DNA from: a virus
Length of the DNA stretch: 64,000 bases
Strand: one strand, 5' to 3'
Virus record (IMG/VR): IMGVR_UViG_3300005529_000001
Coordinates: 272,882 to 336,881 of that record
Shown here in pieces: positions 3,632 to 63,913 of this stretch. Every line of letters starts with the position of its first letter. The stretch's first letter is position 1. Made by a program: the position numbers and the translations under genes. Under the pieces are notes generated by a model. It was not told the DNA's origin, made no database searches, and saw only the letters and a program-made list of their open reading frames with translations.

Positions 3632-5778
3632 TCGTCTTCCCCGTCGTCGATGATAAATACATCGCTTTCATGAAGCTGGTGACCGCTCAACGATCCACTC
3701 TCAACAAGCTCTACATCAACTGATCCGTTATTGCCATCGATCTCATCCTGGACATCGCGACCCTCGGACAGGACCTGGTTTGTGTTGTTCCGGGCTGCTT
3801 CCCACGTCTTGGTCATCTTGCCCAGGATGCTAGCAACATCTGGGGGCAACCCCATCCTGTTACCGGCGCTAATGAACTGAGGCGTTTCGTTCAACGTCTG
3901 TTCAATCTGATCTTTGGCCTCAGCAAACGGGTTTGAGATAACGCTCTTCATCCAATCAGCGTCTGTTGGATCTTCCATGGCATGGTTGTCAATACCCGTC
4001 ATCTTGACGAAGTCTGGCAAGTGAGTCTTGCTGGCACCATGAGTCCTACGCCGTGAGCGGTTGTAAAGAGCACGTTGCAGCTGAGACTGTGGCTTGACGG
4101 GAGGATCTTTGCTGTTTCCCGCTACCTTCAATGCAAATGACTCGTTGTCATCACGGTCATCGCCACCCGTCAGGAGCTGATGGCTGGGGTTCTCTTCTTC
4201 TTCGGCTTCTTCCCCAGCGTTTTCTTCAGGCGGCGTTTCTCCGCCGGCTTCTTCTCCACCTGCTTCGCCTCCCTCAGGAGCAGCTCCGCCTCCACCACCT
4301 CCCCCAAAGATGTCGTCAGTGCCTCCGCCAGTGTCTTCACCACCCGCTCCGCCAGCGACTCCCTCGATCGTGTCATCGATTTGTTTCTCCGCCATCCGCT
4401 CTTCATCAAGCGCCTCGACCTGCTCATCGTTAAGGCCCATGATTTCTTTGCGGATGAATTTCTTGCTGACAACGCCCTCAGGGGCTGAGCCGCCGATCTC
4501 GAACTTAGCACGCCACAGCTCGAGCTTCTGCTGTTGAGCGACCGTTGACGGGTTGCTTAGCCGCAACGTAAAGTTCTGCAAATCCTCGCTGTCATAACCG
4601 TGCGCATACAGGTGGATGATCGCTAGCTTGTTCAGCTCAGCCATCATTGTCTTTTGGACAACGTTGATTGTCCGGCTGAAGCGGATGTCTTCCTGAGCAA
4701 GCGTTGCCTTGCTAGAGAGCATCTCATCGTATCCCAAGTAGGCTCTGGGGATCTTAAGAGCCGCAAAGAGCTTTTTCTGGATGTACGCTACGTCCTCGAC
4801 GGCGGCGGTGTTCTGCCCGCCGGCTAACGTGTCGATCTTGGTTCCCGACTCTCCACCACGGACTGGGATGAAGAAGTCCTCCTCGACCGACATTGGATTG
4901 TAACGTAGGTCAACTCGTCCCGTGTTCCGATCAACGACCGGGGTCGTCCTCATCTGTTGGCGTTGTTGCTCGATGTAGGTGTTGACTTCGTTGGCGGGGA
5001 TGTTTGCGACATCAATGTAAAAGACGCGGCGCTCGGGAGCACGAACGACACGGTAAACCAACATCGCGTCCTCGATCAAGATCAACTGGCGCCAGATGCG
5101 GCGCGCTGGCTCGATGATCGAAGAACCATAGGGCAGGAACATGTCGTTGCCCAACAACCGGAAGTGAGTGACTTCCCAGTTTTCAAGCGTTCGGTTACCG
5201 AGAGTCACCCACCGGTAACGGACAGCGAACGGATCGTCCCTATCATAGTTCTCTTCACGCTCAATCTCGTTGACCGGGATCGGGAAAGCATTGATGACAC
5301 CGTATTCAGGAGAAACGTCGTTGTAGAGGAAGAAATCACCATACTTGCAGAGGTTTCGAGCCCACGAACGGAGGTTGAACTCGACGTTCAGGACGTTGTA
5401 AAACAAGTCCTCAAGCAGCTCTTTGATCTTCTCGTTGTCCGAGTAGATGTGAAGGACACGGCCCTTCTCGTCTTGGGCACACGTCTCATCAGCATAGATG
5501 TCCATCGCTGCCGCGATCTCAGGAGTGTACTCCATCTCCTGGAAGTCTTGGTAGCGCATCAAGCGCTCGCTCAGGTTGTACGCATTGGACGTGATCGTCG
5601 CGTACGTTGGTGAGAGTGACTTCTGGAAGAGGAGGGTACCTGATGACTTTGTCTTGTCAGCGACGGCGATCGTCGTGTCAAGGGCGCGGATCTTTCGCTT
5701 GACGACAGGTCCTGAACGGAACAGCCGGGTCAGCCTGCGAAATAAGCTCTTTGGTTCTCTCCTTGCCATCTCGTTCAC
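3628..5778 (-). CDS. portal vertex protein (T4 gp20-like) with internal Gly/Glu low-complexity insertion
   Basis: 716 aa protein directly between large terminase and scaffold/protease; portal-sized, remembered gp20-like overall architecture; acidic G-rich insert ~aa 480-540. Confidence 0.6.
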   Translation of the reverse strand: MNEMARREPKSLFRRLTRLFRSGPVVKRKIRALDTTIAVADKTKSSGTLLFQKSLSPTYATITSNAYNLSERLMRYQDFQEMEYTPEIAAAMDIYADETCAQDEKGRVLHIYSDNEKIKELLEDLFYNVLNVEFNLRSWARNLCKYGDFFLYNDVSPEYGVINAFPIPVNEIEREENYDRDDPFAVRYRWVTLGNRTLENWEVTHFRLLGNDMFLPYGSSIIEPARRIWRQLILIEDAMLVYRVVRAPERRVFYIDVANIPANEVNTYIEQQRQQMRTTPVVDRNTGRVDLRYNPMSVEEDFFIPVRGGESGTKIDTLAGGQNTAAVEDVAYIQKKLFAALKIPRAYLGYDEMLSSKATLAQEDIRFSRTINVVQKTMMAELNKLAIIHLYAHGYDSEDLQNFTLRLSNPSTVAQQQKLELWRAKFEIGGSAPEGVVSKKFIRKEIMGLNDEQVEALDEERMAEKQIDDTIEGVAGGAGGEDTGGGTDDIFGGGGGGGAAPEGGEAGGEEAGGETPPEENAGEEAEEEENPSHQLLTGGDDRDDNESFALKVAGNSKDPPVKPQSQLQRALYNRSRRRTHGASKTHLPDFVKMTGIDNHAMEDPTDADWMKSVISNPFAEAKDQIEQTLNETPQFISAGNRMGLPPDVASILGKMTKTWEAARNNTNQVLSEGRDVQDEIDGNNGSVDVELVESGSLSGHQLHESDVFIIDDGEDE

Positions 5779-16790: not shown

Positions 16791-17651
16791 CTACACCACG
16801 ATCCCAAGGTCCCTCATGACCTGTCGGGTGATGTGGCGGTAATCGTTGAACCCGTTGGCCCGACTGTACTCTCGACCCGCCGCAGCGGTGTTCATCACCC
16901 GCTCCGTCAGCAGGAACTCTTCTGGTTTGACCTCCCAGATCTCCTTTGAACCATCGGTAAAGTAGACGATGAAGTCGGGCACGTGCCATCGCTTGTTGTT
17001 GTTATAGTAGTATGGGATCTTCAGGCTCTCGTATTCCCAGCCCTCGACCGTCGGGCTGGCGTCAAGGAACTTCATCGCCGCTTCCTCCCAGCTCGACTTG
17101 AAGAAGTGTTCCTTGGTATTCTTCACCGACACGTAGGTTCCCTTCTTGTTCTGGGTGCCGTAGGACCGGAACCTGCCCTCAGTGATCGCCTGTGCCTTCT
17201 TCTCTGACATCTTGGCGCGCGTCTCTTCCGAGTGCTTGCGGCCGTACATGCCGTTGTTGGTGCCAGACCGCTTCTCACCCTTCGAGACCTCGCTCAGGTG
17301 GCGTTTCGTCTCCTCGGTGTGGCTCTTCCCCAGCCAGGGTCGCCATTCTCCTCGGGCTGCCTTTTCTTGGATCGTGGCTTTCGCTTTGGCGTGTGACGCA
17401 GGCGAGTTCAGTGCCTGGATCGACTTCTGCCACGTCTCCGGGTGATCGTGCTTGTACTTGCCACGACACTTGTTGTCGCAGAAGTGCATCACTCCGCGAT
17501 CCCTGGTCTTTGACCCTTCGATGATCGCTTCACAGGCATCACACTTGAAGCGATGGACAATGCTCTTGCGGTTGGTGACGAGAGATCGCCGCTCGATAAT
17601 CTCCAGGAGCATGGCAATAAGTACCACGCACACTGGCGTTAGCAACGTCAA
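16791..17651 (-). CDS. homing endonuclease-like protein: NUMOD3 DNA-binding repeats fused to PD-(D/E)xK nuclease domain
   Basis: Two GKSHTEETKRHLSEVSKG / GRKHSEETRAKMSEKK NUMOD3-type repeats; C-terminal WHVPDFIVYF..EIWEVKP nuclease core; sits between two paralogous structural genes. Confidence 0.65.
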   Translation of the reverse strand: MTLLTPVCVVLIAMLLEIIERRSLVTNRKSIVHRFKCDACEAIIEGSKTRDRGVMHFCDNKCRGKYKHDHPETWQKSIQALNSPASHAKAKATIQEKAARGEWRPWLGKSHTEETKRHLSEVSKGEKRSGTNNGMYGRKHSEETRAKMSEKKAQAITEGRFRSYGTQNKKGTYVSVKNTKEHFFKSSWEEAAMKFLDASPTVEGWEYESLKIPYYYNNNKRWHVPDFIVYFTDGSKEIWEVKPEEFLLTERVMNTAAAGREYSRANGFNDYRHITRQVMRDLGIVV

Positions 17652-29916: not shown

Positions 29917-31377
29917 TCAGAGGATCTTAGACGCAAGAGTGGCAAGCTCCGATCTCTCGCCCTTGATGAGGGTGACATGGCCGGCGATAGGGTAATCTTT
30001 GAACCGCTCGACGGCGTAAGTCAACCCGTTAGTGAAAACATCCACATGAACGTTGTCAATCTGCTCAATATCACCCGTCAAGATGATTTTGGTGCCATCT
30101 CCCACACGAGTAATGATCGTCTTCAGCTCGTGCATCGACAGGTTCTGGGCTTCGTCGATGACAATGAAGGCGTTCGGGATCGACCTTCCCCTGATGAAAG
30201 TGATCGCTTCAATCTCAATGAGACCACGCTCCTGCATCAGGTTCAGGTACATGTTATCGTCAAACGCTTGCTTTTCGTTGCCTGCACGCCGCTGTCTCTT
30301 GGGACGGTTCCTCTTGGTGTCCATCAGGAAGTTGAGGTTGTCACGGACGGGAGCGATCCACGGTTCCATCTTCTCCTCAAGGGTCCCTGGCAAAAAGCCA
30401 ATGTCCTTACCAACGGGCTGGACTGGACGGGTGACGATCAGCTTGTCATACCGTGCAACAGCTGGGTTTCCTAACGTCTTCAGTTGCTCGAGACCTGCCG
30501 CAAGCGCGAGCAGCGTCTTGCCCGTGCCAGACGGGCCCACCAGCGTCAACAGCTTGATCTTTTCATCAAACAACAAATCAAGCGAGAACTGCTGTTCTTT
30601 GTTCCTGGGAGTCAAGCCAAACGCTTGTTCGATTTTCTCGACGGGAACAAGTGGCTTCTTGGGATCAATGCACTTCGCCAGGGCTGACTTGGTAGGTCGG
30701 CCATCGTCAAAAGCGTGCTTGATGACAACGATCTGGTTTGGGTACAGCTGATGATTACTTGTCAGGTCAAGCTCACCATGCTTGTAGAAGTGATCAATTC
30801 GTTCTTCTTCGAGCTCAATCACTTCAACGCCACGGTAAAATTTCTGCGGGCTGTCAACAGCCACACGCATCTTTTTGTAGTCTTCACACTTGACACCGAT
30901 GCTGTCACACTTGATCCTGACGTTGATGTCCTTTGACACCAAGATAGAACCATCGACGTGTTTGGCATAAGCGATGATCATGTTGTCAGGCTTGCCCAGT
31001 TCTAGCCCAGGCAACTGGACGTCTTTGATGGCGTCCATTCGCCCTACCTTTAGGGTCCCACCCTCGTGCAGCTGGACACCTGCGTAGAGACCGCCTCGTT
31101 CTCGAAGAGTGTCGAGCGATCGGGTCACTTGACGCGCATTACGTCCGACTTCATCGGGTCGGCTCTTGTGACGATCTAGCTCTTCTAAGACAATCATCGG
31201 GATGATGACGTCATTTTCTTCAAATGAAAAGATCGAGTTCGGATCGCTTAGAAGGACGTTGGTATCAAGGACGTACGTCTTCTTCTGGCTCATGAGATTT
31301 ATTGTTCTTTCTGTTGGTGCGTTGTGCACTGTTGGTTCTTTCCCTTTGGTTTCTTGAACATAGAAAGGGCCAACCAT
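29917..31377 (-). CDS. phoH: PIN-domain PhoH-like ATPase (PhoH2/YlaK-type)
   Basis: N-terminal PIN (YVLDTNVLL..D..E), C-terminal P-loop GPSGTGKT and PhoH-like DEAQN box (VIDEAQNLS). Confidence 0.85.
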   Translation of the reverse strand: MVGPFYVQETKGKEPTVHNAPTERTINLMSQKKTYVLDTNVLLSDPNSIFSFEENDVIIPMIVLEELDRHKSRPDEVGRNARQVTRSLDTLRERGGLYAGVQLHEGGTLKVGRMDAIKDVQLPGLELGKPDNMIIAYAKHVDGSILVSKDINVRIKCDSIGVKCEDYKKMRVAVDSPQKFYRGVEVIELEEERIDHFYKHGELDLTSNHQLYPNQIVVIKHAFDDGRPTKSALAKCIDPKKPLVPVEKIEQAFGLTPRNKEQQFSLDLLFDEKIKLLTLVGPSGTGKTLLALAAGLEQLKTLGNPAVARYDKLIVTRPVQPVGKDIGFLPGTLEEKMEPWIAPVRDNLNFLMDTKRNRPKRQRRAGNEKQAFDDNMYLNLMQERGLIEIEAITFIRGRSIPNAFIVIDEAQNLSMHELKTIITRVGDGTKIILTGDIEQIDNVHVDVFTNGLTYAVERFKDYPIAGHVTLIKGERSELATLASKIL

Positions 31378-34279: not shown

Positions 34280-34885
34280 TCAGGCACCGATGATCTTGTC
34301 AACAATGCCTAGCTTGATCGCGTCTTCGGGTGTCAAAAAGTAGTCAAGCATCGGGCGCATAAAGTCCTTCTCTACTTTCTCCTTTGACATCTTTGTCTCT
34401 TTCACGAGAGCGCTGACCATCAGCTCCTGGAGCCGGCGCGCTTCTTTTGTCTCGTTTTCCATCTCAAAGATGTTTCCCATGACGCCTCCTGAGATCGGGT
34501 GGATCATGATGCGTGCAGATGCACCGATCAACCGCTTGCCCTTGACTCCAGATGCCAGCAAGAGCACGCCTGCCGACATCACCTTTCCCAAACCCACCGT
34601 GTGAACGGGACACGGCAAAAACTTGAGGATGTCATAGAGAGAAAACATCTCGTCAACGCTGCCACCGTAGGTTGACACAACAAGATAGATCGGGTTCCGA
34701 TTCAGGTTAGCGAGGTGTAGTAATTGCGCGATAACATTCGCAATCGAGTGTTCGCTGACCTCGCTATGCAAGTACACGATCCGAGTGTTGTCTACTTGCG
34801 ACGCTAGAGCACGAGTGAGATGCTCGATCTGATCTTCTTCTTCCGCAGTGACACGGTTCCGGTTTTCAAGCGTCGCTCGACCCAT
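34280..34885 (-). CDS. clpP: ClpP-family serine protease
   Basis: GKVMSAG (Ser), IMIHP (His), downstream Asp region; ClpP-sized (201 aa). Confidence 0.8.
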   Translation of the reverse strand: MGRATLENRNRVTAEEEDQIEHLTRALASQVDNTRIVYLHSEVSEHSIANVIAQLLHLANLNRNPIYLVVSTYGGSVDEMFSLYDILKFLPCPVHTVGLGKVMSAGVLLLASGVKGKRLIGASARIMIHPISGGVMGNIFEMENETKEARRLQELMVSALVKETKMSKEKVEKDFMRPMLDYFLTPEDAIKLGIVDKIIGA

Positions 34886-57771: not shown

Positions 57772-57877
57772 AACATTCAGTTTGGGCTGAATAGGGTATG
57801 CTCAAGACGGGAATCCCACCGTCGCCTTGACGTTGAAGCCAGTGAGGCTGAGTCAGGGACTCAACACGGAGAGTGTC

Positions 57878-58885
57878 ATGAGCGAGTTTGGAATTGTCAT
57901 CATGCGGGCACAGCCCTTTCACAATGCGCACCTGGAATTGGTGCGTTTTGCGCTTAAGGAAGCGCAAAAAGTAGTCATCATCCTGGGAAGTGCCAACGCG
58001 CCCCGGGACACAATGAACCCCTTCACCGCCGACCAACGGCGTGACATGGTCAGGAGTTGCCTGACTGCCGACGAGCTCTCTCGTGTCGAGATCATCTCCG
58101 CGAAAGACTACCTCTCAAACAACATGTGGATCGCAGCGGTCCAAAACTCGGTCGATGCTGTCACGGGCGGGTCCAGTGATATCAAGCTGATCGGTCACAA
58201 GAAAGACGCCTCAAGCTTCTACTTGAAGCTGTTTCCACAGTGGAGCTTCCATGAGACGGGAGCTTTCTCTGAGCTCAATGCGACGAGCGTCAGGGAGAAC
58301 CTGTTCCGACAGGATAAGATCACCATCAAGACGCAGGTGCCGAAGCCGGTCTACGACTACCTGTGCTCTTGGATGGAGAGCGCTGAGTACAAGCGCCTCC
58401 ATGGTGAGTACAAGAACGTACAAGAAGAACATGCCGCTTGGGAGGAGAGCCCTTACGTCCCCACCTTCGTGACGACAGACGCCATCGTCATCTGCAGCGG
58501 TCACATCCTCATCGGCCGCCGGGGTGGAGCTTACGGCAAGGACCTGCTGGCTTGGCCAGGTGGGTACCTAGAGCAAGACAAGTCAATCCTGGACTCTTGC
58601 ATCCGTGAGCTCCGGGAGGAGACGAAGCTCAAGGTCTCGACCGAAGACCTGAAGAAGGCGGTCATCGATAAGGACGTTTTCGATGACCCCCGGCGCGACC
58701 AACGCGGGCGTGTCATCACCCATGCCTTCTGTTTCAAGCTGCCCGATGGGCGGCTACCTGAGGTCCAGGGTGCGGACGACATGGCCAAGGCATGGTGGAT
58801 GACCATCAACGAGTTCTACACCCGAGAGCTCGAGTTCTTCGCAGACCATTTCAAGATGGGCTGCCGTTTCATCAATCGATTTTAA
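57878..58885 (+). CDS. nadM: bifunctional NMN adenylyltransferase / Nudix hydrolase (NadM-Nudix)
   Basis: H-x-G-H type PFHNAHL; Nudix box PGGYLEQDKSILDSCIRELREETKL. Confidence 0.85.
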   Translation: MSEFGIVIMRAQPFHNAHLELVRFALKEAQKVVIILGSANAPRDTMNPFTADQRRDMVRSCLTADELSRVEIISAKDYLSNNMWIAAVQNSVDAVTGGSSDIKLIGHKKDASSFYLKLFPQWSFHETGAFSELNATSVRENLFRQDKITIKTQVPKPVYDYLCSWMESAEYKRLHGEYKNVQEEHAAWEESPYVPTFVTTDAIVICSGHILIGRRGGAYGKDLLAWPGGYLEQDKSILDSCIRELREETKLKVSTEDLKKAVIDKDVFDDPRRDQRGRVITHAFCFKLPDGRLPEVQGADDMAKAWWMTINEFYTRELEFFADHFKMGCRFINRF

Positions 58886-58941
58886 AAAGTTCCGCCCGAT
58901 CGAGCCAGAGAGGCCCGCGAGGCGCATCACGGAGAGTGAAT

Positions 58942-60393
58942 ATGAGAACCACATACATCAGGACGTACCTTAGAAAACCCGACCTCGAGCTCAGCGCGAT
59001 CGAGGACACTGACTCGTATAAATTCAGCCACTTCCCCATGTACCCGGGCATGTCGTACATGGAGAGTTATCTCGAGGCTCGGGGCGGCGAGTTCGACACC
59101 TGTACCCTGTTTGGGTTGCAGTACGTCATCCACAAGTACATCGCCAAGCGTGTGACAGCAGCTGATGTCGAACGTGCTGAAGCCTTCGCCCTGGCACACG
59201 GTGAGCCGTTCAACCGCAAAGGTTGGATGCACATCGTCACGAAGTACCACGGTTACCTTCCCATCACCATCCGCGCCATCCCAGAGGGCATGGTGGTGCC
59301 CGTCAAGAACGCCGTGATGATTGTCAGGAGCCCGGTCGATCCCGAGTGTGCCTGGATCACTAACTGGTTGGAGACGTTGCTGTCCAGGGTCTGGTACCCG
59401 TCGACGGTCGCCATCGCGAGTCGCGAGATCAAGAAGGTCTGGAAGCATTACCTCGACCTGACCAGCGACACCCCCGAGGAGATCAGCTTTAAACACCATG
59501 ACTTCGGTTCGCGTGGCGTCACCAGCCAGGAGCAGGCGATGCTCGGCGGCGCGGCCCACCTGCTTAACTTCCTCGGTAGCGATACCATCGCGGGCATCCG
59601 CATGGCGAATCACTATTACGACGAAGCCATGGCGGGTTTCAGCATCCCAGCCACCGAGCACTCGACGATCACCATCTTCGGTCGTGACCACGAACGTGAT
59701 GCCCTCAAGCTCTGGATCCAGAAGATGCTGGTCGAGCGTCAGGTCCCCGAAGGGCTGCCCAAGCTCGCTGCTTGCGTTGGCGACTCTTACGACATTTACC
59801 GTTTCACGGAGATGGTTTGCGAACCCGAGATCTACGCCATGATTAAGGGTTCGGGCGGCACCCTGGTCGAGCGCCCCGATTCGGGCGACCCGATCGAGGT
59901 GCTTCTCAGGATCCTCGGCATCATGGAGGATCGCCTCCCAAAGGGTGAGATCACTGTCAACTCTAAGGGTTTCAAGGTGTTGCCTGCGTGCCTCCGTCTC
60001 ATCTGGGGCGATGGCATCAACCGTCGCAGCATGAAGACGATCCTGAAGGCAATCACAGACGCAGGATGGAGCGCCTCAAACCTGGCTTTCGGTTCGGGCG
60101 GTGGCCTGCTGATGGATTTCAACCGCGACACCCAGAAATGGGCGTTCAAGCTGTGCTACGCCATCGTGGACGGCACACCGCGCAAGGTGTCGAAGGACCC
60201 GATCACCGACCCGGGCAAGCGCTCGAAAGAGGGTCACCTCGATTTGATCGTCACCCCAAATGGCGTCGAAACGGTCACTATTCCAGACAATGTTGCAGCT
60301 CATCACAACAGCGTCATGGTGACCTACTACGATGGTGGTGACATCACATTCCACACCGACATGACCGCCTGCCGGACAAGGATGGCGATCTGA
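58942..60393 (+). CDS. nadV: nicotinamide phosphoribosyltransferase (NadV/NAMPT)
   Basis: NAMPT-like regions GSDTIAG, HSTITIFG, GSGGGLLMD; ATG 58942 with GGAGAG RBS. Confidence 0.8.
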   Translation: MRTTYIRTYLRKPDLELSAIEDTDSYKFSHFPMYPGMSYMESYLEARGGEFDTCTLFGLQYVIHKYIAKRVTAADVERAEAFALAHGEPFNRKGWMHIVTKYHGYLPITIRAIPEGMVVPVKNAVMIVRSPVDPECAWITNWLETLLSRVWYPSTVAIASREIKKVWKHYLDLTSDTPEEISFKHHDFGSRGVTSQEQAMLGGAAHLLNFLGSDTIAGIRMANHYYDEAMAGFSIPATEHSTITIFGRDHERDALKLWIQKMLVERQVPEGLPKLAACVGDSYDIYRFTEMVCEPEIYAMIKGSGGTLVERPDSGDPIEVLLRILGIMEDRLPKGEITVNSKGFKVLPACLRLIWGDGINRRSMKTILKAITDAGWSASNLAFGSGGGLLMDFNRDTQKWAFKLCYAIVDGTPRKVSKDPITDPGKRSKEGHLDLIVTPNGVETVTIPDNVAAHHNSVMVTYYDGGDITFHTDMTACRTRMAI

Positions 60394-60412
60394 GGTGTTG
60401 TAGAATCTATGG

Positions 60413-60847
60413 ATGGATTACACCGCAAGCAAGATCGCCGATCACCTGTTCCAAGGCGGACGACCACCCCCGGGTGACGGCCTGAAAAACGCCGGGGTAG
60501 ACGTCCTAGTCCTCTGTGCCAGAGAGTGGCAAGAGAGCGCGCTCTACCCCGGACTCATCGTCATCAAAGCTCCTGGTGATGATGATCGACGTGAACATCG
60601 GTTAATGCAGTCCATCGACAAGTGGAAGCTCGCCGCAGAACTCTCAGCCGAACATGTCATGGCAGGTCGCAACGTCTTGATCACTTGCATGCAGGGACTC
60701 AATCGTTCAGGACTAGTCATGGCTATGACGTTACGGATTCTGACGGGATGGTCGGGAAAGAAGATCGTCGAGCACATCCAGAATCACCGCGAGCATGCCT
60801 TGTTCAACGATACGTTCGTTCGTTACATTGAGACCAACTACCCATGA
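60413..60847 (+). CDS. dual-specificity/tyrosine protein phosphatase
   Basis: CX5R catalytic loop CMQGLNRSG. Confidence 0.7.
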   Translation: MDYTASKIADHLFQGGRPPPGDGLKNAGVDVLVLCAREWQESALYPGLIVIKAPGDDDRREHRLMQSIDKWKLAAELSAEHVMAGRNVLITCMQGLNRSGLVMAMTLRILTGWSGKKIVEHIQNHREHALFNDTFVRYIETNYP

Positions 60848-61350
60848 TCAACTACCTTGTCGGAGACGCAACTGATCCACGGGTTACGGGCAACAAGATC
60901 ATCGCTCATGTCTGCAATGACATTGGTGGCTGGGGCAGAGGGTTCGTCTTGTCGGTGTCCAAGAAGTGGTCCGAGCCCGAAGCGGTTTACCGTCAAGGGA
61001 AAGACCTGACCTTGGGATCTGTCATGTTTGTCCCGGTATCCCACACCGATACAACCATCCAGGAGACGATCTACGTCGCAAACATGATTGGCCAGCGCGG
61101 TGTCATTGCAGCCGAAGACGGCACCCCACCCATCCGTTACGAAGCCATCGAAACGTGCTTGGGACGCGTCAGAGCGTTTGCGTTGCAGCTCGGTGGAGCA
61201 AGCGTCCACATGCCCCGGATCGGTTGCGGCCTGGCAGGAGGTAAATGGAGCAAGATGGAACCCATCATCGAGCGAGCGCTTGATGGCATCGACACATACG
61301 TGTATGATTTTGACACGAAAGACTCCCGGACTGTTTCCTGGAACAAGTGA
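60844..61350 (+). CDS. macro domain protein (ADP-ribose binding / mono-ADP-ribosylhydrolase-like)
   Basis: IIAHVCNDIGGWGRGFV and VHMPRIGCGLAGG. Confidence 0.75.
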   Translation: MINYLVGDATDPRVTGNKIIAHVCNDIGGWGRGFVLSVSKKWSEPEAVYRQGKDLTLGSVMFVPVSHTDTTIQETIYVANMIGQRGVIAAEDGTPPIRYEAIETCLGRVRAFALQLGGASVHMPRIGCGLAGGKWSKMEPIIERALDGIDTYVYDFDTKDSRTVSWNK

Positions 61351-61503: not shown

Positions 61504-61986
61504 ATGTCATATCACATCGGCCTGCGGGTGCTGCGGGCAAAAATCAGGGGCTTTCAGGCCGCTGGTAGCACCATCGCGTCACGCATCTCGAAGTCCGAGA
61601 AGGACCGCAAGAACCGTCTCTGGAACGAGAAGCGGCTCCTCGGCGTTCACTGTCGTGCTCACCTGGTTGCATATGGGCTGCTCCGTGGGGTACCGTATGA
61701 CCAGATCGAGAAATGCGCACCAAACAACAAGCTAAACCCACAGCTCGTCCTCGACATCATGCTGGCTCACAACGGCTGGGACGCAAAACGAGGGTACGTC
61801 AAGTACGACCTAGCGGTGGTCGAAAAGCTGCTGGCTCCTGCTTCAAACGAGACTGGGAGCGTGCAGGAAAGCCCAACGGTTGTTGCTGCCCCAGCTGCCT
61901 CGCCGAACTCGGGCGTAGTCCACGTGGTCAAGAGCTTGCTAGGCTTGTCCGCGAGGTCTCAAACCGCCCCAAGAAGCGCCCAGTGA
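61504..61986 (+). CDS. hypothetical protein
   Basis: 160 aa. Confidence 0.35.
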   Translation: MSYHIGLRVLRAKIRGFQAAGSTIASRISKSEKDRKNRLWNEKRLLGVHCRAHLVAYGLLRGVPYDQIEKCAPNNKLNPQLVLDIMLAHNGWDAKRGYVKYDLAVVEKLLAPASNETGSVQESPTVVAAPAASPNSGVVHVVKSLLGLSARSQTAPRSAQ

Positions 61987-61994
61987 GACAGGCC

Positions 61995-62351
61995 ATGGCC
62001 ACCATCAAAGAGGGTGACAAGCTTTACGTGGTGACCCGGAGAGACATCTCTCCAGGCTATCAGGGCGTCCAATCACAACATGCAGCCATCCAGTTTGCGT
62101 TTGACCATCCCGAACGTGGGACGGAGTGGTTCAAGAACTCGAACTACTTGGCATGGCTGTCGGTCGAGAATGAGGTTGAGCTGATGAAGCTCATCACTGA
62201 TGCTGCGGACGTCGGGCTCAAATGGTCAGCGTTCAGGGAGCCCGACGTGGGTGGCCAGATCACTGCGATCGCGCTCGAGCCCCACCCACGGACTGCCGCG
62301 CTGTGCAAAGCATTGCCGCTTGCGCTTAGAGAACTGGAACAGGTGAAGTGA
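61995..62351 (+). CDS. peptidyl-tRNA hydrolase, PTH2 family
   Basis: KLYVVTRRDISPGYQGVQSQHAAIQFA parallels PTH2 [25 protein letters not shown]. Confidence 0.6.
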   Translation: MATIKEGDKLYVVTRRDISPGYQGVQSQHAAIQFAFDHPERGTEWFKNSNYLAWLSVENEVELMKLITDAADVGLKWSAFREPDVGGQITAIALEPHPRTAALCKALPLALRELEQVK

Positions 62352-62352
62352 C

Positions 62353-62712
62353 ATGGACCAAGCACTTAATACCATCGTCTATGACGATTTCGCCAGAGTT
62401 GACATGCGTGCGGGCCTCATCACAGCCGCAGAGGCTTTGCCAAAGTCAGAGTTGCTGAAGCTCCAGGTTGACTTCGGTGAGCTAGGAACTCGGCAGGTCC
62501 TTGCTCGTCTCGGCAAGAGCTACGAGCCAGCAACTCTTGTCAACCTCACCGCAGCGTTCGTCGTCAACTTGCCCCCACGTACCATGAAGGATCTTGAGAG
62601 TAACGGCATGATCCTTGCGGCAGAAGTCAAGGATTCTGATGTTCCTGCTCCACACCGCGTTGCCGTGGTGTTGCTCCCCGGGACAGTCCGACCAGGAACG
62701 AGGTTGGGATGA
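62353..62712 (+). CDS. tRNA-binding domain protein (Trbp111/CsaA/MetRS C-terminal 'Myf' domain)
   Basis: VDMRAGLITAAE...LKLQVDFGELGTRQVLARLGKSY...NLPPRTMKDLESNGMILAAE. Confidence 0.75.
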   Translation: MDQALNTIVYDDFARVDMRAGLITAAEALPKSELLKLQVDFGELGTRQVLARLGKSYEPATLVNLTAAFVVNLPPRTMKDLESNGMILAAEVKDSDVPAPHRVAVVLLPGTVRPGTRLG

Positions 62713-63335
62713 CAGAGAACCGCGCGACGTTCTTCGCTAGGTTGGAACCTGTGTTGGCTCCGAGCGACCTGCTCGATGTCCAACTCGCTTACACCCTGGC
62801 GAAATTCGGCCATCGGGCTCAGGCTCGCAAGGAGCTGGGGCCTGCAGGCAAAGCAGTGCGTTATTTCGAGCACTGCCGTCGTGTCGCGCTCATCCTCATT
62901 GATGAGGTCAAGATCGTCGAACCTGGGCTTGTCATCACCGCCCTTCTACATGATTGTCCGGAAGACACTAAGGATGTCAATCCCGCCATCATTGAGCACT
63001 GCTTTGGGCACAAGGTCGTCACCAGTGTCAAGGTCCTGAGCAAGACGCCCAAGGAAGGCTACAACGAGCGATTTTGGGCTTGTTCGCTTTGGCAGCCCTA
63101 CATCATCAAGGGATGTGATAGGCTTGACAACCTGAGGTCACTGTACTGCTGCCCGGATGACTTCCGAGCCAAACAGGTGGCTGAGACACGGGAGAAGTAC
63201 TTCCCGCTGTTCGACCGGATGATGCACCTGGTCCCCATCAAACACCGCGAACGAGCGGCATGGCTTCGCGACGCGGTGCGTCGCGAGACCGAACGCCAAG
63301 CAACGTTACTGGAGGCGTCACATGAAGAAGTCTGA
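62709..63335 (+). CDS. HD-domain small alarmone hydrolase (SpoT/Mesh1-like (p)ppGpp hydrolase)
   Basis: HCRRVALIL...LLHDCPEDT and CDRLDNLRS (cf. ADRLHNMRT). Confidence 0.7.
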   Translation: MTENRATFFARLEPVLAPSDLLDVQLAYTLAKFGHRAQARKELGPAGKAVRYFEHCRRVALILIDEVKIVEPGLVITALLHDCPEDTKDVNPAIIEHCFGHKVVTSVKVLSKTPKEGYNERFWACSLWQPYIIKGCDRLDNLRSLYCCPDDFRAKQVAETREKYFPLFDRMMHLVPIKHRERAAWLRDAVRRETERQATLLEASHEEV

Positions 63336-63750
63336 GCTGGAACACTTCATCACCCTGACCCTGGGTGACTGGTCACATGACGGTCACAGCCAGACTGACG
63401 TCATCACCGTCAGGTGTAACGTCGACAAGAAGGACCTCGAGAAAGCATATAAAAAGGGCACCAAGAAATTAGGTTTCGATCTCACCGAAGATGTCTGCGC
63501 CGACTACGAAGACATGTCGGCATCAGCCGACGTCATCGAAAAGCTCAAAACTGCTGGTATCAAGCCCGAAGATTTCATCGAGAACGAAGATGAAGATGAC
63601 GAGGGATGGTCATTCGCCTACAATGTCGAAGCCTTCGCCAGTCTCTGGCTGCGTATCGCTCAGTTGGGCGATCCCGATCTCAAGTACGAGCTCGTCGAAA
63701 CCAACCCGAACAATATTAACATCGGAGGTTACGGCCTATTTGGATCTTGA
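63322..63750 (+). CDS. hypothetical acidic protein
   Basis: 142 aa. Confidence 0.35.
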   Translation: MKKSELEHFITLTLGDWSHDGHSQTDVITVRCNVDKKDLEKAYKKGTKKLGFDLTEDVCADYEDMSASADVIEKLKTAGIKPEDFIENEDEDDEGWSFAYNVEAFASLWLRIAQLGDPDLKYELVETNPNNINIGGYGLFGS

Positions 63751-63757
63751 ACATAAC

Positions 63758-63830
63758 GGGTCCGTAGCTCAATGGCAGAGCAGCTCGATTTCAACCGAGT
63801 GTGTTGCGGGTTCAAGTCCCGTCGGGCCCC
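63758..63830 (+). tRNA. tRNA-like gene, 73 nt, 8-nt anticodon loop AUUUCAAC; anticodon ambiguous (UUC/Glu or UCA register)
   Basis: Acceptor GGGUCCG/CGGGCCC, D-arm GCUC-AAUGGCA-GAGC, T-arm GCGGG-UUCAAGU-CCCGU; only good anticodon stem GCUCG/CGAGU forces 8-nt loop. Confidence 0.6.
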
Positions 63831-63836
63831 CAAAAA

Positions 63837-63910
63837 GCTCCCGTAGCTCAGAGGCAGAGCAGCCGGATTTCAACCCGATGCGGTCGTGGGTTCGATCCCC
63901 ACCAGGAGCG
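63837..63910 (+). tRNA. tRNA-like gene, 74 nt, same AUUUCAAC anticodon-loop, weaker stems
   Basis: D-arm GCUC-AGAGGCA-GAGC, T-arm GUGGG-UUCGAUC-CCCAC, acceptor with one C-A mismatch; anticodon stem imperfect. Confidence 0.45.
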
Positions 63911-63913
63911 CAA

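Follow-up and report, generated by a model that had tools for sequence, protein, structure and literature searches.

PTH2-like hydrolase genes are known from jumbo phages, where ribosome rescue after tRNA cleavage has been proposed as their role (Iyer et al. 2021, PMC7824862), and from cluster C mycobacteriophages, where ~96% of the tRNA arrays carry one (Morgado & Vicente 2018, PMC5966550). In both settings, the genes are already annotated as peptidyl tRNA hydrolase and have been discussed as ribosome-rescue factors, while the stop-codon-reading character of the adjacent tRNA has gone unremarked. Phage suppressor tRNAs have been described in the 'code-change module' of recoded phages, which combines a suppressor tRNA with an aminoacyl-tRNA synthetase (aaRS) and a release factor (RF) (Borges et al., bioRxiv 10.1101/2021.08.26.457843). 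Here we describe an operon with a PTH2-like gene at positions 61995-62351 of a 64,000-nt stretch of viral DNA (IMG/VR record IMGVR_UViG_3300005529_000001, positions 272,882 to 336,881; hereafter the window, meaning the whole of this stretch), and we report that the conserved unit across very divergent large phages is the PTH2-like gene together with a stop-codon-reading tRNA (CUA, UUA or UCA).

The window encodes a portal protein, a large terminase, PhoH and an SbcC-like protein, which establish its phage origin and lead us to regard it as part of a jumbo phage. The PTH2-like protein and the tRNA_bind protein encoded next to it were both found, identical, on a 369,506-bp metagenomic contig (ENA ERZ27279688 k141_1055159), while no near-identical DNA or close DNA relative was found among deposited phages. 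The operon consists of the following co-directional genes:

61504..61986, + strand: unk160, a 160-aa protein, directly upstream of the PTH2-like gene
61995..62351, + strand: PTH2-like hydrolase, 118 aa, ATG to TGA (Pfam PF01981, AlphaFold2 (AF2) fold, Foldseek)
62353..62712, + strand: free-standing tRNA_bind (OB-fold) protein, 119 aa (Pfam PF01588)
62709..63335, + strand: Mesh1/SpoT-type HD hydrolase (small alarmone hydrolase, SAH), 208 aa (HD_4, PDB 3nqw)
63322..63750, + strand: acidic 142-aa protein, phrog_20092 (match at 1.1e-21)
63758..63831, + strand: tRNA 'a' (Rfam, 52.2 bits; four-base anticodon 'ttca' by ARAGORN; 8-nt loop AUUUCAAC)
63837..63911, + strand: tRNA 'b' (Rfam, 46.9 bits; the same 8-nt loop, AUUUCAAC)

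The genes are tightly packed. The unk160 stop codon lies 8 nt ahead of the PTH2-like start, a single nucleotide separates the PTH2-like stop from the tRNA_bind start, the tRNA_bind stop and the HD start overlap as ATGA, the HD gene and the phrog_20092 open reading frame (ORF) overlap by 14 nt, and the first tRNA starts 7 nt past the stop of the latter. No terminator-like site was found within this stretch. An earlier note, made from the sequence alone, had described a PTH2-family gene directly followed by a tRNA_bind gene, next to tRNA genes and a ppGpp hydrolase, and all of these stand where it placed them, with the coordinates of the two protein genes exact. That observation is confirmed, and the interpretation put on it, a translation-rescue pair protecting tRNA pools, is partly supported.

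The window's PTH2-like protein belongs to the same phage-specific family as those of the cluster C mycobacteriophages (Myrna gp84, HyRo gp147, Bxz1 group; 42-48% identity), whose genes also lie among tRNA genes, but these phages and the jumbo phages described earlier lack the tRNA_bind and SAH neighbors. As in the code-change module, a phage suppressor-type tRNA is clustered with a translation-termination or tRNA factor. However, the ORFs scanned in the window and in locus L001 yielded no aaRS or RF; the partner is instead a PTH2-like hydrolase, a protein mentioned zero times in Borges et al. The window also differs in using the standard code, with TGA as the main stop, and in the 8-nt loops of its tRNAs.

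PTH2-like genes and stop-codon-reading tRNAs

By tblastn, the PTH2-like family was found in 251 phage records. Mycobacterium phages account for 207 of these, with the gene routinely annotated 'peptidyl tRNA hydrolase', and the other carriers include Lak megaphages, Aeromonas T4-like phages, Xanthomonas phage XacN1, Tenacibaculum phage pT24 and 460-735-kb 'huge phages'. A profile built from an alignment of 33 PTH2-like homologues (A1, also the basis of the AF2 model and the profile searches below) and run against 1.84 billion cluster representatives (50% identity) matched 2,564 clusters at E ≤1e-3, 1,106 of them at ≤1e-10. The family is thus not rare in phages, contrary to the earlier note.

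We examined the tRNA neighborhoods of 80 IMG/VR loci found with a further alignment (A3), which span PTH2-like identities of 40-85% and contain 66 distinct PTH2-like sequences. In 58 of the 66 distinct loci, ARAGORN placed a suppressor-type tRNA no more than 5 kb from the PTH2-like gene; 38 of the 58 have a CUA anticodon, 17 the 8-nt UUCAA loop seen in the window, two UCA and one UUA. In 50 of these 58 loci the tRNA lies downstream of the gene and in 56 it shares the gene's strand, at a median distance of 0.8 kb. Of the 62 loci bearing any tRNA, 51 have a suppressor-type tRNA as the one closest to the gene. Among the 28 loci carrying at least three tRNAs, the suppressor was nearest in 21, whereas its proportion of the tRNAs would predict 7.8. 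Even in arrays of 26 (L096) and 11 (L101) tRNAs, the CUA tRNA abuts the PTH2-like gene (-17 and -53 bp). The tRNA calls were confirmed by Rfam (43.7-67.4 bits). All 13 of the loci closest to the window have one or two tRNAs no more than 1.6 kb after the PTH2-like gene, also where tRNA_bind and the HD gene are missing.

The linkage extends to deposited phages. A CUA tRNA lies 130 bp downstream of Myrna gp84 and 0.8 kb downstream of the PTH2-like gene of LR756500, and two are found at +2.1 kb in LR756501. Upstream placements are seen in Tenacibaculum phage pT24 (an annotated tRNA-Sup at 2.6 kb) and in Lak-B8 (a UUA tRNA at 0.6 kb). In HyRo, an unannotated CUA tRNA-like sequence located 250 bp downstream of gp147 is the first after the gene in a 24-tRNA array:

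L016 5605-5678 (record 92250-92323): HyRo CUA tRNA-like (ARAGORN), with a C·C mismatch at 31-39 and the acceptor stem of Myrna gene 86

Exceptions are XacN1, Aeromonas phage CC2 and LR756504 as well as ~8 of the 66 loci. A link between PTH2 and suppressor tRNAs in phages was not found in any paper of the literature searched, and the linkage appears to be unreported within it.

Two features of the linked tRNAs and their loci bear on decoding. Position 31-39 is unpaired in 25 of 51 suppressor-type tRNAs, compared to 31 of 143 other tRNAs from the same loci (L026-L105), so that many of the suppressor tRNAs would have effectively enlarged loops. In CUA-bearing loci, the TAG stop is almost unused (0-2 of ~15 genes), as expected if the suppressor is active, and in the 735-kb huge phage LR756501 the PTH2-like gene itself contains an in-frame TAG (L019 6094-6096). 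This in-frame codon indicates that TAG is reassigned in LR756501, so that at least some of these phages truly suppress TAG.

For the window's two tRNAs, U33-UCA-A37 is embedded in an 8-nt anticodon loop, in which Infernal places an insertion. The stem of tRNA a (GCUCG/CGAGU) has five of five pairs in the 8-nt-loop register only, and that of tRNA b has four of five, compared to three and one in the 7-nt registers. Across 29 unique tRNAs of this type (the window's two and 27 in L026-L063), the 8-nt register averages 4.1 of 5 pairs with clear covariation (for example GCUCG/CGAGU, GCCAG/CUGGU, GUCCG/CGGAU and AUCGA/UCGAU), and the loop consensus N-Y-U-U-C-A-A-N retains Y32-U33, UCA and A37. Readings with a 7-nt loop, with UUC (Glu) or UCA as the anticodon, were rejected, given means of 2.8 and 1.7 pairs. 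One further locus carries a canonical 7-nt UCA tRNA (L098_8197, loop CUUCAAA) with the acceptor stem of tRNA b; for this reason the window tRNAs are likeliest, judging from their sequences, to be UGA readers with one additional loop nucleotide, while a four-base UUCA anticodon reading UGAA is possible. Opal recoding (code 4) was rejected for the window, since the standard code covers 95% of it and TGA is its main stop. We also noted same-frame neighbors split by TGA plus zero to two codons at 28805-29827/26315-28795 (- strand) and 47063-47998/47999-48601 (+ strand). Read-through-fusable same-frame neighbors number 10 of 48, no more than expected by chance.

Several loci combine the PTH2-like gene with a tmRNA gene, located 1.3-3 kb upstream in at least eight loci and also present at the end of the HyRo array:

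L047 2051-2404 and L055 3299-3653: phage tmRNA genes (Rfam)
L050, L052, L056, L057, L059 and L066: phage tmRNA genes (ARAGORN)

These tmRNA genes are flanked by three to five tRNA-Thr genes in array and a tRNA-Arg(CCU). Pth and tmRNA are known to be physiologically linked (Singh & Varshney 2004, as cited in PMC5966550).

Fold and family of the operon's proteins

With 153 database homologues for the PTH2-like protein and 40 for tRNA_bind, at identities reaching down to ~40-55%, and full-length orthologues of both in syntenic viral contigs, the two ORFs are real genes rather than chance ORFs. Profile searches, which the earlier note had set as its own test, recovered both families above the Pfam cut-offs. 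The PTH2 match (PF01981) is marginal (E 8.9e-6, 26.3 bits compared to a cut-off of 23), and the ORF also matches phrog_1866 at 1.2e-17. The AF2 model has a mean pLDDT of 94.8. Foldseek searches of the PDB with this model gave, at E <1e-4, exclusively Pth2 structures (top 13; TM 0.67-0.76, probability 1.0), among them those of M. jannaschii (2zv3), P. horikoshii (1wn2), A. fulgidus (3erj), S. solfataricus (1xty), T. acidophilum (1rlk) and human Bit1 (1q7s). The A1 profile detected the same Pth2 chains among PDB sequences at 5e-6 to 3e-3 (2zv3 best, 5.1e-6). Since model and profile agree on these chains, we regard membership of the predicted structure in the PTH2 fold as secure.

Six residues, Q26, H29, E82, P83, D84 and T90, do not vary among the phage proteins. 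With Pth2 these have the helix-1 Q-x-x-H in common, and HMMER aligns the Asp of Pth2 opposite E82, in a motif that reads EPD in the phage family but DAG in Pth2. Tyr22 is aligned with the Lys of the archaeal 'G-K' motif in three of four HMMER alignments. The catalytic residues of S. solfataricus Pth2 are reportedly Lys18 and Asp86, and we take the 'G-K' Lys opposite Tyr22 to be this Lys18. The phage protein thus shares with archaeal and eukaryotic Pth2 the alpha/beta fold, the size of ~115 aa, the helix-1 Q-x-x-H and an acidic motif before the last strands, but is only 21-28% identical to them. Compared to these enzymes, it has a two-residue deletion in the catalytic-Lys loop, with Tyr or a variable residue there, 'E-P-D' in place of 'D-A-G-x-T' and a shorter loop before the last strand. 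The catalytic His and Asp by which the earlier note would have recognized a PTH2 are the wrong residues, as His20 and Asp93 belong to Pth1, in which they act with Asn10 (PMC4929431).

A second recurrent partner of PTH2-like genes is an uncharacterized ~180-aa HD-like domain with the motif HDxGKP...RHFPNH...HSNAxMFGG. Its gene is directly upstream of the PTH2-like gene in one clade (L055-L061, ~4442-5005), and the domain is fused to the PTH2-like protein, in either order, in XacN1 ORF364 (L023 4461-5300) and pT24 gp293 (L021 5097-5915). Matches in the PDB and NCBIfam were sought and none was found. Identity of the XacN1/pT24 domain with the window's SAH was rejected (BLASTP E 5.7).

The tRNA_bind protein matches Pfam PF01588 over profile positions 1-95 of 96 (E 1.1e-15, 58 bits compared to a cut-off of 27) and 26 PDB sequences at E ≤1e-3. 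These include MetRS (6wq6, 1.6e-14), the 130-aa MetRS C-domain 38li (3.5e-14, over residues 5-117, which include the C-terminal part), CsaA (2nzh, 3.4e-13) and Trbp111 (1pyb, 1.4e-11). NCBIfam scores were best for the MetRS type (80 bits; metG_C_term 76 compared to a cut-off of 116.65), followed by the YgjH type (60 compared to 117) and CsaA (56 compared to 171), and every equivalog cut-off was missed. Because it scores best with MetRS models yet falls under all of these cut-offs, the protein appears to be a divergent free-standing member. By sequence it clearly belongs to the Trbp111/CsaA/MetRS-C superfamily, in which the MetRS C-terminal domain and Trbp111 are nearest to it. It has its own start and stop, and its orthologues are 109-122 aa long. 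It thus resembles Trbp111, the MetRS C-terminal domain, CsaA and YgjH as a ~110-120-aa OB-fold protein, with 32-41% identity to MetRS C-domains, but differs in being encoded by a phage and in sharing its operon with tRNAs and a PTH2-like gene. Only 24 records of deposited phages match tRNA_bind, mostly MetRS genes or doubtful short contigs, and we found no description of a phage counterpart in such a context.

The third protein of the series matches Pfam HD_4 (32.6 bits compared to a cut-off of 27.2), NCBIfam spoT_relA (5.5e-11) and, in the PDB, Drosophila Mesh1 (3nqw, 2.6e-8) and Rel/SpoT hydrolase domains (1e-7 to 1e-5). SAH enzymes hydrolyse (p)ppGpp and have been shown to remove the pyrophosphate added to the tRNA CCA end by the toxSAS toxins FaRel2 and CapRel (bioRxiv 10.1101/2021.04.30.441581). 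The window's protein aligns with Mesh1/SpoT hydrolase domains, and its alignment to Mesh1 covers the HD motif 'LLHDcpEDT' and the DxLxN motif ('DRLDNLR'); known SAHs restore pyrophosphorylated tRNA. In contrast to the SAHs that detoxify toxSAS (Mesh1, ATfaRel, PaSpo), this predicted SAH is encoded by a phage, has no toxSAS partner and is present in only 13 of the 80 loci.

The two remaining proteins are more obscure. The N-terminal ~110 aa of unk160 are conserved, with an AYGLLRG motif and 105 metagenomic homologues, and AF2 predicts a long antiparallel helical hairpin (helices 5-30 and 33-60; pLDDT 79.7). Searches of Pfam, PHROG and NCBIfam gave no match for it, and the predicted fold has none in the PDB. 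The gene adjoins the PTH2-like gene in 13 of 13 syntenic loci and was detected in 29 of the 80; distant homologues lie between the PTH2-like gene and the CUA tRNA in L077 and L090. The phrog_20092 protein had no Pfam match above threshold and was found in five of the 80 loci.

Conservation of the operon and its surroundings

The operon lies directly downstream of genes for NAD+ metabolism and associated proteins (57827-61350), an arrangement that is syntenic in close relatives:

57827-58885: NMNAT/Nudix, a member of a NARP2-type NAD+ reconstitution pair
58942-60393: NAMPT, a member of the same pair
60413-60847: DSPc-like (dual-specificity-phosphatase-like), below the Pfam threshold
60844-61350: Macro-like, below the Pfam threshold

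The DSPc-like/Macro-like stretch matches phrog_335 at 1.3e-27. NAMPT and NMNAT together constitute NARP2-type counter-defence (bioRxiv 10.1101/2024.02.11.579819), and NARP operons with Macro-type phosphatases have been reported (10.64898/2026.01.28.702374). The arrangement in the window resembles such extended NAD+ counter-defence operons, which carry an ADP-ribose-1''-phosphate phosphatase.

The 13 close IMG/VR loci (PTH2-like identity 67-85%) share the order NMNAT/Nudix, NAMPT, DSPc-like, Macro-like, unk160, PTH2-like, tRNA_bind, HD and tRNA(s), in which tRNA_bind and HD are optional. The tRNA_bind gene is absent from four of the 13 and evolves faster than the PTH2-like gene (39-75% identity compared to 67-85%). 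In the 80 loci, tRNA_bind was detected 12 times and SAH 13 times and, as for unk160, all of the occurrences are in or near the window's clade. Where present, tRNA_bind is always between the PTH2-like gene and the tRNAs, and the tRNAs adjacent to it are of the non-canonical type. The huge phages LR745206 and LR756504 have PTH2-like and tRNA_bind genes 7 kb to 300 kb apart. Given its presence in 12 of 80 loci and its loss in close relatives, the combination of PTH2-like and tRNA_bind genes, which the earlier note had taken for a functional pair, is a lineage-specific arrangement and not a conserved two-gene system.

Elsewhere in the window, we noted a large sugar-nucleotide/glycan biosynthesis cluster of an extent unusual for a phage (41953-57771, and L001 12720-15196). 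It contains several GT1/GT2/GT4 glycosyltransferases, a Polysacc_synt_2 dehydratase, a DegT aminotransferase, an acetyltransferase, two UDP-glucose/GDP-mannose dehydrogenase-like genes and a methyltransferase. Genes at 893-1654, 16791-17651, 34280-34885 and 29917-31377 encode GIY-YIG homing endonuclease, NUMOD3/TnsA-like endonuclease and ClpP-family protease functions. The NUMOD3/TnsA-like gene sits among large, probably structural genes of no known function, and the ClpP-family gene adjoins the PhoH and helicase genes.

A possible tRNA 3'-end module and its rivals

We favor, tentatively and at a little less than an even chance, a reading of the operon as a module that services tRNA 3' ends and is built around the phage's own stop-codon-reading tRNAs, with activities that we infer. 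The PTH2-like enzyme would hydrolyse the ester bond of peptidyl- or N-blocked aminoacyl-tRNA. Such substrates could arise by tRNA drop-off as suppression, termination and ribosome rescue compete, or where read-through stalls ribosomes, and their hydrolysis would prevent trapping of the suppressor tRNA, present in a single copy, and of the tRNA pool at large. As additions specific to the clade, a dimeric OB-fold tRNA_bind may hold the tRNA elbow as a chaperone or cofactor for the 8-nt-loop tRNAs, and the SAH may clear (p)ppGpp/(p)ppApp or the 3'-pyrophosphate with which toxSAS toxins modify the CCA end. The earlier note's proposal of a tRNA-directed module stands in that both genes, going by their families, plausibly act on tRNA and are packed with the SAH gene upstream of the tRNAs, but it overlooked the conserved partner, the stop-codon-reading tRNA.

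Several observations weigh against a tRNA 3'-end module. Host Pth1 should already carry out the proposed reaction. The NCBIfam Pth2 equivalogs were clearly missed (NF003314, 22.7 bits compared to 126; TIGR00283, 16.8 compared to 82); membership in the strict Pth2 enzyme family is not secure, and the protein is better described as a divergent phage branch of the Pth2 fold. In a wider phage sample, Y, F, L, Q or A takes the position of the archaeal 'G-K' Lys, and this variability suggests that the chemistry or the substrate may differ; no biochemical data on any phage PTH2-like member were found in the literature searched. As for the linkage, counts such as 58 of 66 overstate the number of independent events, the loci being metagenomic and partly related by descent, and the CUA tRNA-like sequence of the cluster C mycobacteriophage HyRo scores only 26.1 bits with Rfam, below the 29-bit threshold. 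The window's stop-codon use is also hard to reconcile with suppression. Greedy ORFs in the standard code cover 95% of the window, with TGA ending 48 of 63 genes (76%). Avoidance of TGA-A at stops, predicted by quadruplet decoding of UGAA, was not seen (8 of 45 stops in the window, 40 of 153 in the clade). ORFs that continue past TGA in frame 0 or +1 are not in excess, and read-through is not required by any gene. Because efficient UGA suppression would harm a phage that stops at TGA, the 8-nt-loop tRNAs may not be ordinary suppressors. A UGA-reading tRNA in a phage with TGA as its main stop is thus a paradox.

A different use of this paradox is made by a reading in which the hydrolase and the stop-codon-reading tRNA form a two-part device for RF-independent termination or for gatekeeping. 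By an 'accept-and-drop' route, the tRNA would decode the stop and take the peptide, its odd anticodon arm would promote dissociation and the hydrolase would free the protein; by the other route, a gatekeeper hydrolase would deacylate the suppressor tRNA and thereby time genetic-code switching. Such a device would resolve the presence of UGA-reading tRNAs in a phage with TGA as the main stop. It is also consistent with the very tight and oriented linkage, often 15-140 bp on the same strand, with the non-canonical tRNAs (8-nt loops and the frequently unpaired 31-39) and with the loss of the canonical catalytic Lys, which hints at altered specificity. The scheme is purely inferential and without precedent, however; TAG-recoded phages (LR756501, Lak), in which the suppressor must stay on the ribosome, carry the gene too, and the avoidance of TAG stops by CUA-tRNA phages fits suppression rather than assisted termination. 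We consider the two-part device improbable, and hardly less so the full form of this reading, with clade-specific recruitment of the Trbp111-like holder and of 8-nt-loop tRNAs that are possibly quadruplet UGAA decoders.

The role favored by the earlier note, a counter-defence pair that guards or recycles the tRNA pools under attack by anticodon nucleases or ribosome-stalling toxins (PrrC, VapC, retron effectors, PARIS), is unlikely in our view, yet less so than the device. PTH2 would clear peptidyl-tRNA fragments off jammed ribosomes and tRNA_bind would shield tRNAs, and the same role has been proposed for jumbo-phage PTH2 by Iyer et al. (PMC7824862). The explanation keeps weight because of the anti-defence neighborhood, with the operon directly downstream of the NARP2-type NAD+ pair (NAMPT/NMNAT) and the DSPc-like and Macro-like genes, and because of the adjacent SAH-type hydrolase, which could undo CCA pyrophosphorylation by defence toxins of the CapRel/FaRel2 type. 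Still, the ORFs scanned in the window and L001 yielded no RNA ligase, PNK, RtcB, Hen1 or CCA-adding enzyme, which leaves a countermeasure to anticodon nucleases unsupported; the PTH2/tRNA_bind pair occurs in a single clade only (12 of 80 loci); and the presence of a stop-codon-reading neighbor, rather than of known anticodon-nuclease target tRNAs, is left without explanation.

The same NAD+ genes could suggest that the PTH2-like protein is instead a ribose-ester hydrolase of an NAD+/ADP-ribose island, for example an O-acyl-ADP-ribose deacylase, and that the HD protein acts on NADPH as a phosphatase, an activity that Mesh1 has according to work cited in bioRxiv 10.1101/2021.04.30.441581. In favor are the synteny of the PTH2-like gene with NMNAT/Nudix, NAMPT, DSPc-like and Macro-like genes within the window's clade and the loss of the catalytic Lys. 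However, loci outside the clade lack the NAD+ genes (no more than 18 of the 80 have homologues) but keep the tRNA linkage, and the mycobacteriophage PTH2-like gene sits inside tRNA arrays, so that we give this possibility the least credence. Scarcely more credible is an incidental adjacency, with tRNA_bind as a CsaA-like chaperone or a captured host-MetRS cofactor functionally unrelated to the PTH2-like protein. The significant matches to the CsaA and YgjH families, the fast evolution of tRNA_bind and its dispensability in close relatives would fit, as would the distance between the two genes in LR745206 and LR756504. Yet scores to MetRS C-domains and Trbp111 exceed those to CsaA, and tRNA_bind, coupled to its neighbors through start and stop codons, keeps its place between the PTH2-like gene and the tRNAs and is limited to the window's clade, where the adjacent tRNAs are non-canonical.

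The gene families found here are already known in phages, and what merits attention is the PTH2-like/suppressor-tRNA cassette together with the natural 8-nt-loop tRNAs. PTH2-like phage genes have hitherto been filed as generic translation helpers. If the suppressor tRNA is the real partner, they would supply a missing protein component in the way large phages tolerate or control stop-codon suppression, which would bear on the origin of alternative genetic codes and on how these are switched on during infection. Natural 8-nt loops that are supported by covariation and would read UGA(A) are of interest for frameshift and quadruplet decoding and for genetic-code expansion. Finally, the Trbp111-like protein and the SAH-type hydrolase suggest that phages have more tools aimed at the tRNA 3' end, which may counter toxSAS (CapRel/FaRel2) immunity.

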